Source of the DNA: Scenedesmus sp. PABB004
Lineage: Eukaryota
Length of the DNA: 64,000 nucleotides
Assembly (NCBI GenBank): GCA_014905635.1
Contig: CM026547.1
Span: forward strand, 558,001-622,000
Reading direction: 5' to 3'
The notes beneath the pieces are model-generated. The model had not been told where the DNA came from. It did no database searches and worked only from the letters and a program-made list of their open reading frames with translations. The stretch's first letter is position 1, and the number at the start of each line of letters is the position of its first letter. Below, piece by piece: positions 17,001 to 21,956 of this stretch. The translations under genes were made by a program, and so were the position numbers.

Positions 17001-20000
17001 GCTGGCCGCCGCGGCCACCCAGTACTTCATTGGCGACGTCTACAACACCGCCTCATGGCTGCGCCTCGTGAGCGCGCCGCGCCGCGCCGCACCGCGCCGC
17101 CAGGGGCTGCCCGCCGCCGCGTTGCGCCGCGCCGCGCGCCGCGCGTGCCGCGCCCGACCCCTGGCTGCTGGCGCCGCCGCGCCGCCGCAGGAGAACATCG
17201 GCGCGGGCGTGCTGAGCCTCGGCGTCGCGTACGACTCGGCCGCCAAGACCGCGGCGTTCAACGCCTACGCCGGCAACTACCTCTACCTGCTCGCCCTCAT
17301 CCGCCAGGAGGTGCGCGCGCACTGTTTAACCCTAAACCCAAATCCCTGGGGCCTACTGCAGGCGCCCCGCCCCCGCGCAGCAGAGGCGGCGGCGATCGCC
17401 GCGCGCCGACCGCCGCGCGGCCCGCGCCCGCCCGCCACGCAGGTCGTGAGCACCTACGGCATCGCGCTGCCCGACGCGCCGAGCCCGGCAGACGCGTTCA
17501 GCGCGTCCGTACCGACCATCACCACCTCCGTCGTCGTCGCGACCGAGCCCGCCGGCAGGCTGGAGAGCCTCACCCTCGCGCTCGGCGGCAGCTGGACCAC
17601 GGCCAGCCTGGCAAGCAAGCTCGGCATGGAGTGGGGCATGGCGGATGACCTCCTCACAGTCAGCAACCCCGCGGTCGTGTACGAGCGGTCGCCGCTGAGC
17701 CTGGCGGTCGCCATGACCGTCAACATCCCAGGTGAGGCCCCGCGGCGCAGCGCCCGAGCCCACCCGGCGCGCCCGGCGGCGCCCGGCGCGGCTGCGAGCC
17801 CGGCGGGCGCCGCGTCGCGCAGCCGTGCTCTGCGCCCACGCGCGCCCCCGCGTGCCGCGCCGCCCCGCAGCGCTGGGCGTGGCCAACACCACGACCACGC
17901 TGCGGGTGACGCCCGGCAACAGCGTGGAGCTGCTGGTGCGCCGCCGCTGCCGCCGCCGCCACCGCGCGATCGCCGGGGGCTCCGCGCCCCGCGCCGCTGC
18001 GCTCCGCCGGCCCTGCCTGCTCACACCGCGCGGCGCGCCCGCGCCCCCGCGGCTGCGCAGGTCCACGGCGCCATCCGGCCGTTCCGGCAGCTCGTGGTGA
18101 CCGACGTGATTTTCAGCCTGCAGAAGAACCCGCGCGCGCTGAGCGCGAACGCTCGCGGGACGCTGCTTGGCATCGACATGGGCGTGGCGGCGACAATCTT
18201 CCGCAACAAGACGGTCACGCTCGCGCTGACCGCGGAGCGCGTCAGCCTCGGCGCGCTTCTTCGCGAGATCTTCTCCAGCGACGTGCCCGCCCCGATACTG
18301 AGCATCCTCGACCCAGTCCGGTTCGGCAACGTGAGCATCACCTACAACTCGGCCGCGGCCAAGAAGTTTGGCCTCCGCGCGACGCCCGACGCCGACGGCG
18401 CGCCCGCGCTCAAAACGATCCTCGACTTTGTGGGGCTTTCTGTCTCGGACGTCCGCTTCGAGGTCGCTGGCAGCGCCGTCGCGTTTGGCGTCACCAAGGC
18501 AAGCGCGCGGCGCGCGCGCGCGCCGAGGGACGGGCGGGCGCGGCGCGGCGCGGCGCGGCGCGGCGGGCGCAGCGCGGCGCGGCGCGGCGCGGCAGGGCGC
18601 CTCGCTCGCTCACCCACCCACGCCCGGCCCGCCGCCTGCCTGCCGCAGACCTGGGGCGTCTCCCTGCCGACGCCGTTCGTCGGCGACAGCAGCGTCACGC
18701 TCAGCCTCGGCGTCGTCAGCGCACCGGCGCCCGCGTTCCAGCTGTCGGGCCGCTTCCTCACGGCGCTGCGCATCCCGGGCGTGCAGGGCGACATTGGCAT
18801 CGACATCTCCGCCGGCATCGCGGCCGGCACGAGCGGCGTGGAGCTGTCGCTGTCCGGCGCGACGCTCTCGACCATCACCTTCATCCCCGCGCCCTTCGTG
18901 CGCATCGGGCCACTCAGCTTGGCCGCCTCCGCCGCCGTCGCGCCGGCGCTCGCGCTCACGCAGTTCCGCCTCGCCGGTGCGCTCTCTCACGCGCACGCGC
19001 CGGCAGCGCCCGCCTCGCTGCCGCCGGCGCCGCGCCGCTTGGGCAGCGCCTGCGCCAGCACCCGCCGCCGCGCCGCCGCGCCCCACCGCGCCTCACCGCC
19101 GCACCGCCGCGCGGCCCGCCCTGCCGCCGCCAGGCACGCTGACCATCTTTGGCGTGAGCGGCCGTGTGTTCTTTGATTACGACAAGAACAGTCGCCGCGT
19201 CGCGTTTCTCGGCGAGGTCAACAACCTCGACCTCCAGGCGGTGAGTGCCGCCGCCGGGGGCCCTCGGGCGACCTGCCGACCTGCGGGCGGGGGTCGGGCC
19301 GTGCTCGCGCCCACTCGCGCACGCGCGGCACGCTGCTCTCAGCACACACTGACACACTCGCCCGCGCCCCGCCGCCGCACGCACGCCCGCGCCGTCCGCA
19401 GCTGCTGAACGACATCGGCGTGGACGTCGAGCTTGGCGTCTTCAACATCGCGCTGAACGCGGTGCGGGTTACCTACAGTACCGTCGCCATCCCCGACCTC
19501 AACGTCACAGCAGGCGTGACCTTCTACGCAGACATCACCTTCATCGGTGCGCGGCGCGCGGCGCTTGGCACGCAGCGGGGCGCGGGCAGGGGCGGGGCGG
19601 CGGCGGGGCGCGGGTCGGGTCGGGGCGGCGGCGGGCGCGGTCCGGCATGGGCGCGCGCGCGCGCAGCGCGGCGCGCCCTGGCCCCGACCCCACGCCCGCG
19701 CCCGCGCCACCTACGCCCACTGCGCCCACGCCCACGCCCACTACGCCCGCTCGGCAGGCCTCAACGCGAAGATCAACTTTGCGCTGACCGATGCGGGCCT
19801 GGAGCTCGGCGCGCAGTTCAACACGACCGAGCTGTCGCGCCTCGTCAACCGCGTGCTCGAAAAGATTGAAGGCGGCATCCGCGCCGCGGGCGAGGCGCTC
19901 ACGGGCGCGGGCAGCACGCTGCGCGGCGAGCGCGACGAGGCGGCGCGCTCGCTCGCGGCGGCGCGCGCGCGCGTGGAGGTCGCGCGCGCCGACGCGGCGG

Positions 20001-21956
20001 CCAAGCTGCGCGTGTTTGACGACGCTAAGGCGTCGGTGAGTGGCGGCAGCGCCGCCGCGCGCCGCGCGCCCGGCCGCCGCCGCCGCCCCGCGCGCCTAGC
20101 CGCCGCGCGCCCACGCGCCGTCCCGCTGCCCGCGCCCCCACATCGCTCACCCCTGCCCACACCCATCAGGCGCGGAGTGGCATCGCGAGCGCGCAGCGCG
20201 ACGTCGACTCAGCGCAGGCGGCGTTTGACCGGGCGGTCGCCGACACCAACGCGGCGCTGGAGCAGGCGCGGCGCGACGTGGCGAGCGCGGAGGCAGCGTT
20301 CGAACGGGCCAAGCAGGACGCGGCGACGCGGCTGGCGTCCGCCCAGTCCACGCTGACCCAAGCCTCCAGCGAGTGAGCGGCGCGCTGGCATCGGGCGGGC
20401 CACGCGGCCGAGCGCGCTGCCTGCTGGTGGCACCGGCGGCGTGCGCAGCAGCCCCCCCCCCCCCCCCCCGCCCCGCCCCGCCCCGCCCCTGACCCACCCA
20501 CGCGCCTGACCCACCCATGCGCCCGCCCGCCCGCGCCCGTGCCCAGCTTCGATAAGTTTCAGGCGAACGCCCTGGCAGAGGTCAACAAGCTGCAGGCCGA
20601 GGTCGACCGCCTCTGGGGCCTGTACTCGGGCGAGAACCGCAAGTGCAGCGGCTGGCCCGACACGTGGGACCACTGCGCCGCGGCGGGCGGCTTCTGGGTG
20701 GCTTATGCGGTGCGCCCCGCGCCACGCCACGCCGGCGCCGCCGCTGCGCCGGCGCTGCGCGCACGCGCCGCCGCTGCTCCTGCCCGCGCGCGCGCCTATC
20801 GACCGCCGCCGCGACGCCGCTGCCGCCGCGCCGCCGCCGCCCAGGCTGTGTACGGCTCGCTGGAGGCGGCGCGTGGGGTTGTGTCCAACGTGTTTGACAC
20901 AGCGCAAGGCGTGGCGTTCACGACCGCCCAGTCGACGCTGGTCGCCGCGCAGCGCACCTCGGACGGCCTCTTGACCAGCACGCAGGCAGTTGCGCTGGAG
21001 ACGGCGCGCCGCGCGCTGGTCGTCGCACAGCGGGCTGCCAACGGCGGTGAGCGCGCGCGCCGCGCGTGCACAGGGCGCGCCAGCGCTGCCGCCGCGCGTG
21101 CCGTGGGCGCGCCCTGCCTCGGCCCCGCAACCCAGCCGCGCCGCCCCGGCCGCCTCCGCCGCCGCGCCGCAGTCCTGGTCGGGACGCAGCAGGTGGCGCT
21201 GAACACGGCTCGCGCCGCGCTGGCCGCCGCGCAGCGGACGGCGGACGGCGTGCTGACGGGCACACAAGCCGCCGCGTGGACCACTGCCAACCAACTCCTC
21301 GATACCGCCTCGGGCGCCCTCGTCGCGACCGAGGTGCGGCGCACACGCCCGCGCCCGCGCCCACGGCCGCGCCCGCGCCTGCCGCCGCGCGCTCGGCCTC
21401 CGCCGCGCTCGGCCTCCTCCGCCGCGCCGCGCCCGACGCCGCCGCGCCTGACGCCGCCGCGCCCGCCGCGCCCGCCCGCCGCGCGCGCCGCCGCGGTTTT
21501 CCCCAGCTCGTCTCCACCTCAACGCTCACGGCGTTCTCCGACGCGCTCACGGCGGTCGGCAACGCGCTGCAGTCGGTCCGGCTGTCCGGCTTCCTGCAGA
21601 TCAACGGCTTCGGCTTCCAGCTCACGCTGCTGCGCACGCGCATCGGCCTGGCCGGCAACTACGACATCACTGTCGCCGGGTCCCGCCTGGCGGGCAGCTT
21701 TGAGTTCTCGCTCGAGTTTGAGGACCCCCTGGACGCCGTCGCGGACCTGCTGAAGGACGCGGCGATGTCGCTGTTTGACTTTGGCGACGGCGCCGGCGCG
21801 CGCCTGGCGCGGTCGGTGGTGCTCAAGGGCGCCGCGCCGACGGCGCCGCGGCTCGCCGGCGGCAGCGTGCAGAAGGCGGGCCTCACGCAGGCGCTCGCCG
21901 CCAGCCGCGCCGTGCGCGCGGCCGCCGCCGCCGCGGGCGGGGCCGGCGCGCGGTGA
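11067..21956 (+). CDS. Gene B: giant secreted protein (signal peptide; ~9 sushi-like modules with large loop inserts; TSP1/spondin-like; helical linker with RRLKR; long beta-strand region; long coiled-coil hairpin; C-terminal beta strands); multi-exon
   Basis: ATG 11067 (MARLRRALVLALALVACRAAA). TSP1 motif CSVSEFSDWGPC...QTRTRTV...CPALTETQPC at ~16037-16186; alternating hydrophobic strands ~17190-19820; 25/26-aa helical repeats ~19830-21560 around CSGWPDTWDHC; stop TGA 21956. Exons supported by paralog B'. Confidence 0.85.

Follow-up and report, generated by a model that had tools for sequence, protein, structure and literature searches.

The stretch of DNA considered here, referred to below as the window, comprises 64,000 nucleotides of the alga Scenedesmus sp. 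PABB004 (assembly GCA_014905635.1, contig CM026547.1, positions 558,001 to 622,000 of the forward strand), and all coordinates are counted from its first letter. It harbours two convergent paralogous genes, which we term B and B'. Gene B occupies 11067..21956 on the + strand and encodes a signal-peptide-like start (MARLRRALVLALALVA), a Cys-rich N-terminal half (N-half) with sub-threshold matches to TSP1, and a C-terminal half (C-half) that is the subject of this report; its public model is P0001, a protein of 2354 amino acids. Gene B' lies at 25309..37228 on the - strand, has the same architecture and a C-half that is 47-65% identical to that of B, and is represented by P0002 (neighbour entry HT031_000101), the second-best match to exon 18061-18498 of gene B. 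An original prediction had described the C-half of B as a beta-rich body carrying a helical hairpin with a Cys- and Trp-bearing tip, and had likened it to pore-forming toxins, fusogens and bridge-like lipid-transfer proteins. Here we describe the gene, the family to which it belongs and the architecture of its product, and discuss what a secreted algal protein might do with such a device.

The window has a GC content of 72-81%. From 16.4 to 22 kb its + strand presents coding-like stretches that switch frames, with Ala/Arg/Pro-rich junk between them. By reading the DNA we placed 13 exons and 12 introns between 17191 and 21956 (+). Eleven introns have GT-AG boundaries and one is of the GC-AG type (donor AAG|gcaagc at 18499), and every acceptor reads cag. 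The joined coding sequence of the C-half amounts to 2949 nt, corresponding to 982 codons and a stop codon at 21954-21956, with no internal stops. Its translation is collinear from end to end with two proteins of Hariotina reticulata at 38% identity, and gaps fall at none of the 12 exon junctions in this comparison. P0001 is 100% identical over exon 18061-18498 and carries the source name 'hypothetical protein HT031_000100 [Scenedesmus sp. PABB004]', and is therefore the public model of gene B. It retains three introns as protein, namely 17068-17190, the GC-AG intron 18499-18648, and 20710-20844 directly 3' of the tip; both P0001 and P0002 appear to be mis-spliced.

The C-half opens with the first and larger part of a beta body (17191..19822, +), which is distributed over exons 17191-17310, 17443-17731, 17871-17935, 18061-18498 (with the GC donor), 18649-18976, 19134-19240, 19402-19546 and the exon starting at 19758, as far as the residues AQFN. 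The splice model, the collinear relatives, the strands that AlphaFold2 (AF2) predicts for these relatives and the amphipathic pattern of the strands all bear on this assignment. An ascending helical arm of ~170 residues follows (19823..20643, +), which begins in the last part of exon 19758-20035, continues through exon 20170-20372 and reaches into the first part of exon 20547-20709. The tip, CSGWPDTWDHCAAAGGFWVAYA (20644..20709, +), is made up of a Cys-flanked turn with Trp-Pro at its apex and the aromatic first turns of the descending helix. The descending arm of ~147 residues (20845..21581, +) takes up exons 20845-21046 and 21173-21333 and extends into the first part of exon 21507-21956. The chain then returns to the sheet (21582..21956, +) with three strands, as placed by the relatives' models, which are followed by a C-terminal amphipathic helix; another ~60 residues form a tail that runs to the stop. 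In outline, the first ~520 residues of the C-half are amphipathic beta strands, and three further strands come after a helical insert of ~340 residues. In B', the tip CDGWPDTWDNCIAAGGIWLAIK (26929..26994, -) has a 66-nt exon to itself, between a cag acceptor and a gtgcgt donor. The tip of B starts where the original prediction had located it, and both tips have the sequence it had given: CSGWPDTWDHC... at 20644 (+) in B and CDGWPDTWDNC... at 26994 (-) in B'.

When exon 18061-18498 was used to query 1.84 billion representative proteins, 27 of them matched at E<=1e-3. All members that can be named belong to chlorophycean algae, the remainder being fragments from metagenomes or run assemblies. 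Scenedesmus sp. PABB004 contributes B, B' and a distant paralogue, P0013; Hariotina reticulata contributes P0005 and P0030 by name, and P0031 and P0032 by the same kind of EukProt gene label; Chlamydomonas incerta has P0019, and Edaphochlamys debaryana has P0020, P0027 and P0028. P0030-P0032 were recovered with the C-terminal 387 residues of P0005 as the query, and the tip is present in all three. The named members are annotated as 'hypothetical protein', by a bare gene-model identifier or by a chitin-binding domain alone. To judge from these sequences, the C-half of B is a real module that has so far been seen in chlorophycean green algae only.

The family is undescribed: it has no Pfam entry, no solved relative in sequence and no paper by accession. 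Among the 13 exon pieces, 11 match no Pfam family and the other two give sub-threshold matches only, and full-length proteins yield nothing beyond sub-threshold TSP1 matches in the N-half and, among distant relatives, CBM_14; over the module itself, no family is matched at E<=1 in any of the 27 members. A search of solved structures by sequence at E<=1 returned none beyond three chance-level rows. A full-text literature search by accession number for B, B' and two relatives led to no paper, and among the matches listed for Scenedesmaceae coiled coils and cell walls there is nothing on the family of B. One wall-proteome paper makes use of the PABB004 genome, and its main text contains the accession prefix of B and B' zero times (PMC11839794).

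The helical insert is built from repeats. Autocorrelation with BLOSUM scores over five homologues is highest at lags 25 and 50 for the ascending arm (1.11 and 1.03, followed by 0.58) and at lags 26 and 52 for the descending arm (1.20 and 1.00, followed by 0.32), in agreement with the 25- and 26-residue repeats that had been read in B beforehand. The hydrophobic periods follow suit, with 3.55-3.6 in the ascending arm (3.57; 25/7) and 3.7 in the descending arm (3.71; 26/7), and each 26-residue repeat of the latter carries a (D/N)G-hL-x-G motif. In B the two arms differ in composition, charged residues making up 30% of the ascending and 11% of the descending arm, which is rich in Thr, Val and Gln. 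Both arms contain 24-25% Ala and only ~6-7 apolar positions per 25 residues (approximately a quarter); the invariant columns are mostly Ala with some Leu and Phe, and by our arithmetic the invariant core positions of the two arms roughly mirror one another in their distance from the loop.

The length of the insert is constrained to a degree that its sequence is not. The segment between the beta anchors measures exactly 407 residues in all five tip-bearing proteins, and in the alignment of B with Hariotina a single indel event falls within the 340-residue insert as opposed to 12 in the 520-residue beta region (Poisson P = 0.0035). The possibility that the hairpin is an artefact, with Ala-rich low complexity driven by GC content being over-read and AlphaFold drawing helices by default, draws on the 72-81% GC of the window, the 24-25% Ala of the arms, the moderate confidence of the models and the shallow alignments behind them, but it is very improbable and largely refuted by cross-genus conservation: Hariotina is much less Ala/Arg-rich and yet retains the 407-residue length, the 25- and 26-residue repeats, the core positions and the tip, indels are depleted in the insert, and the periodicity peaks are sharp.

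Structure prediction agrees with the repeats. AF2 was run on P0032 (1108 amino acids, 30-row alignment; mean predicted local distance difference test score (pLDDT) 68, predicted template modelling score (pTM) 0.42) and on P0030 (644 amino acids, 27-row alignment; mean pLDDT 70.5, pTM 0.42). In P0032 helices 695-752 and 764-863 lead up to a loop at 864-872 (NRCDAWPHN) and helices 873-975 and 988-1031 lead down from it; in P0030 the helices span 230-290 and 297-399, the loop 400-407, and the returning helices 408-515 and 522-566. Both models follow the same order, with helix, break and helix on the way up, a loop of 8-9 residues, helix, break and helix on the way down, and then three strands and a terminal helix. 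Confidence around the apex of P0030, taken in blocks of ten residues, is 75-86 in 371-400 and 411-420 (three of the four blocks there), 70 in the loop block 401-410 and 75 in 421-430. The breaks are paired at ~105-110 residues from the loop on both arms, and could be an elbow or an artefact of low model confidence. If straight, an arm of 150-170 residues at 1.5 Å per residue would reach 22-25 nm.

The distal 100-140 residues of the hairpin superpose on solved antiparallel hairpins, including a chemoreceptor (6s1k_E; Z 9.3, root-mean-square deviation (rmsd) 2.3 Å over 101 residues), PspA (8akq_0; Z 9.5, 3.7 Å over 114 residues), IpaB (5wkq_B; Z 10.2, 6.1 Å over 141 residues) and the R-domain of colicin E2 (2ysu_B; Z 8.8, 5.1 Å over 122 residues). 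The P0030 model also matches the arms of SMC proteins (Z 10.4-10.7; 4rsi_B 10.7, 5nnv_A 10.4) and the folded elbow of cohesin (7ogt_A; Z 10.1 over 335 residues), and Foldseek retrieves the chemoreceptor 2ch7_A with a probability of 1.00 (E 8.2e-03). All of these Z values lie under the level that the aligner calls informative for long helices, and they speak for shape, not kinship. In a library of viral structures, the matches listed comprise only SMC- and Rad50-like phage proteins with template modelling scores (TM-scores) of at most 0.23, and no fusion protein.

Since the core is mostly Ala, with only ~6-7 apolar positions per 25 residues, the arms are better accounted for as a two-helix pair than as a larger bundle, and they fit a solvent-exposed antiparallel pair with a core of small residues. 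Tight antiparallel coiled coils with an Ala core are known as 'Alacoils', and antiparallel helices with small residues, mainly Ala, at a recurring core position are what the sequence columns and the predicted hairpin of this family present. An antiparallel helical hairpin inserted into a beta-rich body, as originally predicted, is thus borne out by the AF2 secondary structure, by superposition on solved hairpins and by the fixed 407-residue length.

The distant relatives indicate where the insert came from. P0013, P0019 and P0020 align over the beta region only, and their homology ends at F(D/N)xTE(F/L), the very motif that opens the insert in the hairpin-bearing proteins. In place of the insert these proteins have a helix-like stretch of ~20 residues that leads directly into strands, and C-terminal of the beta region they carry Cys-rich and CBM_14 chitin-binding domains (CBM_14 is above the cut-off in two distant relatives and detectable at E<=1 in 4 of the 27 members). 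Because the distant relatives lack the insert and have a short helix-like stretch instead, the stalk would be a lineage-specific outgrowth of a short inter-strand connection: the sequences point to a stalk that grew from a short helix between two neighbouring strands in one subfamily comprising B, B' and the Hariotina reticulata proteins. It provides a clean natural case of a helix-like connection of ~20 residues turning into a repeat-built stalk of ~340 residues, whose length is frozen to the residue though the segment is only ~39% identical between genera.

At the apex of the stalk sits the motif C-x2-W-P-x2-W-x2-C-x2-A-G-x2-W, or in consensus over both genera C-(D/S)-(G/A)-W-P-x-(T/N)-W-(D/G)-(H/N)-C-x-(A/S)-A-G-x-x-W-x-A. 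Conservation of its Cys and Trp residues in homologues had been named beforehand as one of the points on which the original prediction could fail, and it held: the tip is kept in B' and in three of the four Hariotina relatives. Between Scenedesmus and Hariotina, no other 21-residue window is as well conserved as the tip, with 62% identity against a mean of 39%. The tip also represents the lowest 25-residue window of the insert on the Wimley-White interfacial scale in all five tip-bearing proteins (-2.1 to -5.6 kcal/mol; medians +5 to +6.7), although in P0032 one window in the flanking strands is marginally lower (-2.95 against -2.86 for the tip). Judged by sequence, the rod appears to be polar throughout except for the tip, its single hydrophobic patch and also its best-conserved part.

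Apart from the pair in the tip, the 982 residues of the C-half of B include no cysteine, and for this reason a disulfide closing the turn within the chain is likely. In the AF2 model of P0032 the loop contains the first Cys, and the second belongs to the opening turn of the descending helix. Residues ahead of the first Cys are polar or charged, and the uncharged run after the second Cys extends over ~11 residues in four of the five proteins before K, E or Q is reached. A run of this length is too short for a transmembrane helical hairpin, which is disfavoured on that account; the tip reads as an aromatic knob rather than as a membrane-spanning hairpin, and the term 'membrane-seeking', which had been applied to it, corresponds to a modest interfacial hydrophobicity.

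In the models of the relatives the beta body forms an up-and-down meander of strands with occasional helices (pLDDT 75-93; 80-93 in the sheet of P0030). The alternating hydrophobic strands that had been read from B are recovered in the P0030 model, where most of the 18 strands present one face of F, L, I and V and another of G, S, T and A, with ~11% charged residues, so that one face of the sheet is probably hydrophobic and the other lined with small polar residues. Beyond the stalk, the sheet is continued by the three remaining strands in the structural alignments, and the matched ranges of the model extend from residue 1 to ~603. We conclude that the body is predicted to be a large, curved wall of antiparallel strands, from which the stalk projects at a single inter-strand connection.

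The structural neighbours of this wall, barrel walls and ApoB100, are generic. For the 1108-residue model Foldseek places ApoB100 first (9ea7; E 5.3e-06, probability 0.97, TM-score 0.10), followed by LptD and S-layer barrels, and for the 644-residue model ApoB100 comes first again (9e9r, E 4.5e-03); overall, TM-scores to ApoB100 range from 0.10 to 0.14. With a structure aligner run against representatives, Z values level off at 10-12 across porins, TonB-dependent receptors, VDAC, Sam50, Toc75, BamA and TamA; this plateau spans hundreds of unrelated barrels, mostly with an rmsd of 10-15 Å. The tightest fits are to very wide barrels, namely MtrB (6r2q_B; Z 11.9, 6.6 Å over 228 residues), SprA (6h3i_A; Z 10.5, 5.2 Å over 226 residues) and LptD (5iv9_A; Z 9.5, 4.5 Å over 201 residues), the last having the lowest rmsd among barrel matches. 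B shares with the outer-membrane barrels MtrB, LptD and SprA and with the ApoB100 belt a meander of ~10-residue strands with one hydrophobic face; it differs from them in having no sequence or Pfam relation to any of them and in probably entering the secretory pathway. Membership of B in the families of repeating beta grooves, large lipid transfer proteins or outer-membrane barrels is not supported.

The N-terminus of B is signal-peptide-like and the N-half is Cys-rich; together with the sub-threshold TSP1 matches and the CBM_14 domains of the relatives, these features suggest an extracellular location. Such delivery by the secretory route argues against membership among the outer-membrane barrels. 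To our knowledge, no barrel-assembly route uses the secretory pathway. The N-terminus, which looks like a signal of the endoplasmic reticulum type, and the disulfide-rich modules of extracellular type likewise speak against delivery of B by BAM, SAM or TOC, and the probable extracellular location does not suit a protein that bridges two membranes in the cytosol or periplasm.

Just upstream of the beta module, at ~16699-16740 (+), B contains a dibasic motif, RRLKR followed by NSPEVR, whose counterpart in the Hariotina protein P0031 reads LKRSSPEVR. It could be a kexin-type processing site that frees the C-half from the adhesive N-half.

We favour a reading in which the C-half of B is a module of a secreted multi-domain protein, and in which its stalk would act as a rigid spacer that keeps the beta body and the knob at the apex a set distance apart. 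This knob would be sticky, probably stapled by a disulfide, and would dock onto a partner surface, which may be the interface of a membrane, a hydrophobic polymer of the wall or a polysaccharide; protein B would then operate as an extracellular strut or adhesin rather than as a toxin. Taken as a whole we give this reading an even chance of being correct, while its structural part, taken by itself, is considerably firmer and in our judgement likely. The principle of a stalk with a functional apex is already known from colicins, chemoreceptors, IpaB and SMC/Rad50 proteins; what is new is the family, the scaffold that hosts the stalk, its construction from 25- and 26-residue repeats and the Cys/Trp apex.

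One of the closest precedents is the R-domain of colicins E2 and E3 (2ysu_B), which like the insert of B is a long antiparallel two-helix stalk with the site of functional contact at its apex; colicin Ia also has a receptor-binding coiled-coil hairpin. There is no sequence relation to B, and the tip of the colicins lacks the Cys pair and the Trp loop. Moreover, the colicin stalk links two globular domains whereas that of B is inserted between strands of a sheet, and the colicins are bacterial toxins while B is a secreted eukaryotic protein with a stalk ~1.5-2.5 times longer. The cytoplasmic hairpin of methyl-accepting chemotaxis proteins (MCPs) and the translocators IpaB and SipB likewise combine a long helical hairpin with a conserved tip. 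In contrast to B, with its Ala-rich core, 25- and 26-residue repeats and extracellular setting, MCP hairpins are cytoplasmic dimers (four-helix bundles) with heptad cores, and the Pfam family MCPsignal matches neither the exon pieces nor the 27 members.

Several points weigh against the favoured reading. The confidence of the predicted hairpin is moderate, with pLDDT values that drop to 40-60 near the base and in the DG..G motifs (<50 in these motifs in P0032); only six sequences inform the hairpin; and alignments A1 and A2 misplaced the Cys-rich tails of distant relatives into hairpin columns. Helix packing, the distance between the two Cys residues, exposure of the tip and the putative elbow are read from secondary-structure strings and structural neighbours. 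The periods of the two arms are unequal (3.57 and 3.71), which is odd for a simple two-helix coiled coil; they could stem from a higher-order bundle and keep bundle ideas alive. The role as strut or adhesin is a guess made from the architecture. Finally, the Hariotina paralogue P0005 lacks 64 residues including the tip, a loss that, if real, would make the tip dispensable. We suspect that exons were skipped in this gene model, because the deletion starts exactly at the position of an exon boundary of B and because the tip of B' is encoded on its own 66-nt exon.

An alternative use of the same architecture would be as an alpha-pore-forming or fusogen-like needle whose tip inserts into a target membrane or into that of the alga itself, possibly after oligomerisation of several hairpins. 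The tip is the sole interface-hydrophobic patch on a polar rod (-2.1 to -5.6 against medians of +5 to +6.7 kcal/mol), and its Cys-flanked, Trp-rich turn resembles fusion loops and the Trp-rich loop of cholesterol-dependent cytolysins. The arms differ in periodicity, as would suit the inner and outer helices of a bundle, and IpaB, the coiled coil of a translocator, is among the top structural neighbours (Z 10.2). The N-half adds sub-threshold matches to TSP1, and adhesive modules of the TSP1 type accompany pore-formers in complement proteins. Against this, the uncharged run of ~11 residues in four of five proteins gives way to K, E or Q and does not have the length that a transmembrane helical hairpin requires, the chain ahead of the first Cys is polar or charged, and the mostly Ala core with ~6-7 apolar positions per 25 residues fits a two-helix pair and not a bundle. 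The Z value of IpaB falls within the plateau of unrelated hairpins, under the level that is meaningful for long helices.

Toxins of the ClyA and XaxAB type do share with B an elongated helical hairpin with a hydrophobic end, but they have no beta body of ~560 residues. The ClyA type is an elongated, all-helical bundle whose end carries a hydrophobic beta tongue or a helical hairpin of ~20 or more apolar residues; in the B module more than half of the residues are beta sheet, the tip is the most hydrophobic window of the insert, and the uncharged run measures ~11 in four of five proteins. The ClyA/HlyE, XaxAB/YaxAB and Hbl/Nhe families have no Pfam match at E<=1 in the 13 exon pieces or the 27 members, and the matches listed from the structure searches include no ClyA, XaxAB, Tc-toxin or viral fusogen, an absence that falls short of a rejection. 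We consider a needle of this kind unlikely.

A second alternative assigns the work to the beta body, which would handle lipid or a hydrophobic polymer in an open groove or belt, like LptD/LptA, ApoB or the bridge-like transfer proteins; hydrophobic cargo such as wall lipid precursors would be carried outside the cell, with the stalk acting as anchor or ruler. The strands have a strongly hydrophobic face opposite a small polar one and few charges, ApoB100 is the top Foldseek match of both models (E 5.3e-06 and 4.5e-03), and LptD has the lowest rmsd among the barrels. The walls of Scenedesmus contain an algaenan-bearing trilaminar sheath according to the abstract of PMC11839794. Against this, the TM-scores to ApoB100 are only 0.10-0.14, and 0 of the 27 members match the Pfam models of vitellogenin, Chorein/VPS13, AsmA or TamB at E<=1, nor do the exon pieces or full-length proteins.

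Large lipid transfer proteins (ApoB, vitellogenin, MTP) have a long amphipathic sheet, as has B, and their N-terminal domain of the Vitellogenin_N type finds no Pfam match in the full-length proteins or the 27 members. The long amphipathic sheet is also common to VPS13, AsmA and TamB, but these are groove proteins that are not secreted and have no such stalk, and none of them is among the fold matches listed, which consist of barrel walls and ApoB100 instead. In this class, which also includes ATG2, five-strand units with a crossing loop at the end of each make up an open, taco-shaped groove; the secondary structure of the models examined here is a plain meander with occasional helices. The bridge-like transfer proteins known so far work in the cytosol or periplasm, whereas B has the look of a secreted protein, and the relatives from Chlamydomonas incerta and Edaphochlamys join the module to chitin-binding domains. 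We know of no algaenan in either of these algae. Lipid handling by the module thus appears doubtful to about the same extent as the needle. Where the original prediction had gone beyond architecture it has fared less well: the hairpin in a beta body and the conserved tip stand, but the toxin and groove families that it invoked find no support in Pfam.

The stalks might instead be elements of a lattice, with tips joined by inter-chain disulfides or aromatic stacking in the manner of the Rad50 hook, or with stalks lying side by side, to give a wall network of regular spacing. A length constant to the residue is what one would expect of a ruler, there are several paralogues per genome, the two presumably exposed Cys residues are the only ones in the C-half, and arms of the SMC and Rad50 type are the nearest long-hairpin neighbours. 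These proteins, like B, contain a very long intramolecular antiparallel coiled coil with a Cys-bearing apex and possibly an elbow. They are, however, nuclear or cytosolic ATPases, and the likeness is of a kind generic to coiled coils; the Rad50 hook is a CxxC motif with zinc, while the tip of B is a C-x9-C arrangement around a Trp-Pro turn that is more simply explained as an intrachain staple. A cross-linker of this sort strikes us as quite unlikely.

We are similarly sceptical of a more far-reaching version, in which B would be a giant secreted amphipathic beta barrel or belt, serving as cargo carrier or conduit, with a needle of ~25 nm whose stapled Trp-Pro tip inserts into a membrane or a lipid-like outer wall; it seems to us a rather remote prospect. 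If true, it would make B an extracellular eukaryotic counterpart of the bacterial envelope-spanning devices of the Lpt and TolC type, or the founder of a new class of pore-formers.

The family is a tractable system and lends itself to the design of antiparallel coiled coils, to the study of molecular rulers in algal extracellular matrices and to work on a large amphipathic beta module. Should the tip bind membranes or the algaenan layer, it would represent a mechanism new to wall assembly, colony adhesion or defence in algae of biotechnological use.

A number of searches yielded candidates or leads that do not enter into the argument. A word-indexed search with the tip exon among longer proteins gave five candidates, none of which scored, a weak negative given that the same index includes the tip-variant proteins P0030-P0032; a search with residues 1825-2300 of P0001 found only P0001 and P0002 among 8000 scored candidates and missed P0031, so that its sensitivity was poor. 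A degenerate DNA pattern for the tip had one match in metagenome contigs, in another frame of an open reading frame for a bacterial FAD-monooxygenase-like protein, and we regard it as chance. The bacterial RTX-type repeat protein P0010 aligned to 18196-18396 (+) with E 2.6e-12 summed over nine weak copies of the motif LT..V..REFF.SD.P..I..L..V.F; each copy scores only ~25-29 bits, so the total is probably inflated by repetition, and the candidate was set aside. In the ESM Atlas the beta region reaches 0.90 at best, to bacterial clusters, with 0.76 to DUF6603, and the hairpin 0.83 at best, values that serve as leads only. The tblastn search was run with composition correction; the uncorrected run was dominated by Ala/Arg/Pro low-complexity matches.

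The paralogous pair shows further features of its own. The public model of B', P0002, retains the intron 27099-26995 ahead of the tip exon, and runs past an in-frame stop (~25311-25309, after ...AAAAAP) into an apparent downstream gene. B and B' are convergent inverted paralogues of mosaic identity, with 34-55% in the Cys-rich N-terminal modules and 47-65% in the C-half, whereas a central block (15521-17073 in B, 32322-30789 in B') is 90-96% identical. Because this block is nearly identical, its sequence suggests recent gene conversion between the two genes.

The N-halves of both proteins contain several copies of a Cys-rich module of ~55 residues (13252-15219, + in B) with the pattern C..P....G..WP..C....C...C..GF.GGPL...C..G.W....G..C, which has no Pfam match in searches with the full-length proteins. 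Further copies of this module lie elsewhere in the window, near 4113-4649, 7716-7898, 9752-9844, 38460-38552, 40407-40565 and 44689-44877. Immediately 3' of gene B there is a copy of a dispersed repeat (22102-22494, +), which in translation is ~94% identical to a second copy at 2483-2091 (-).

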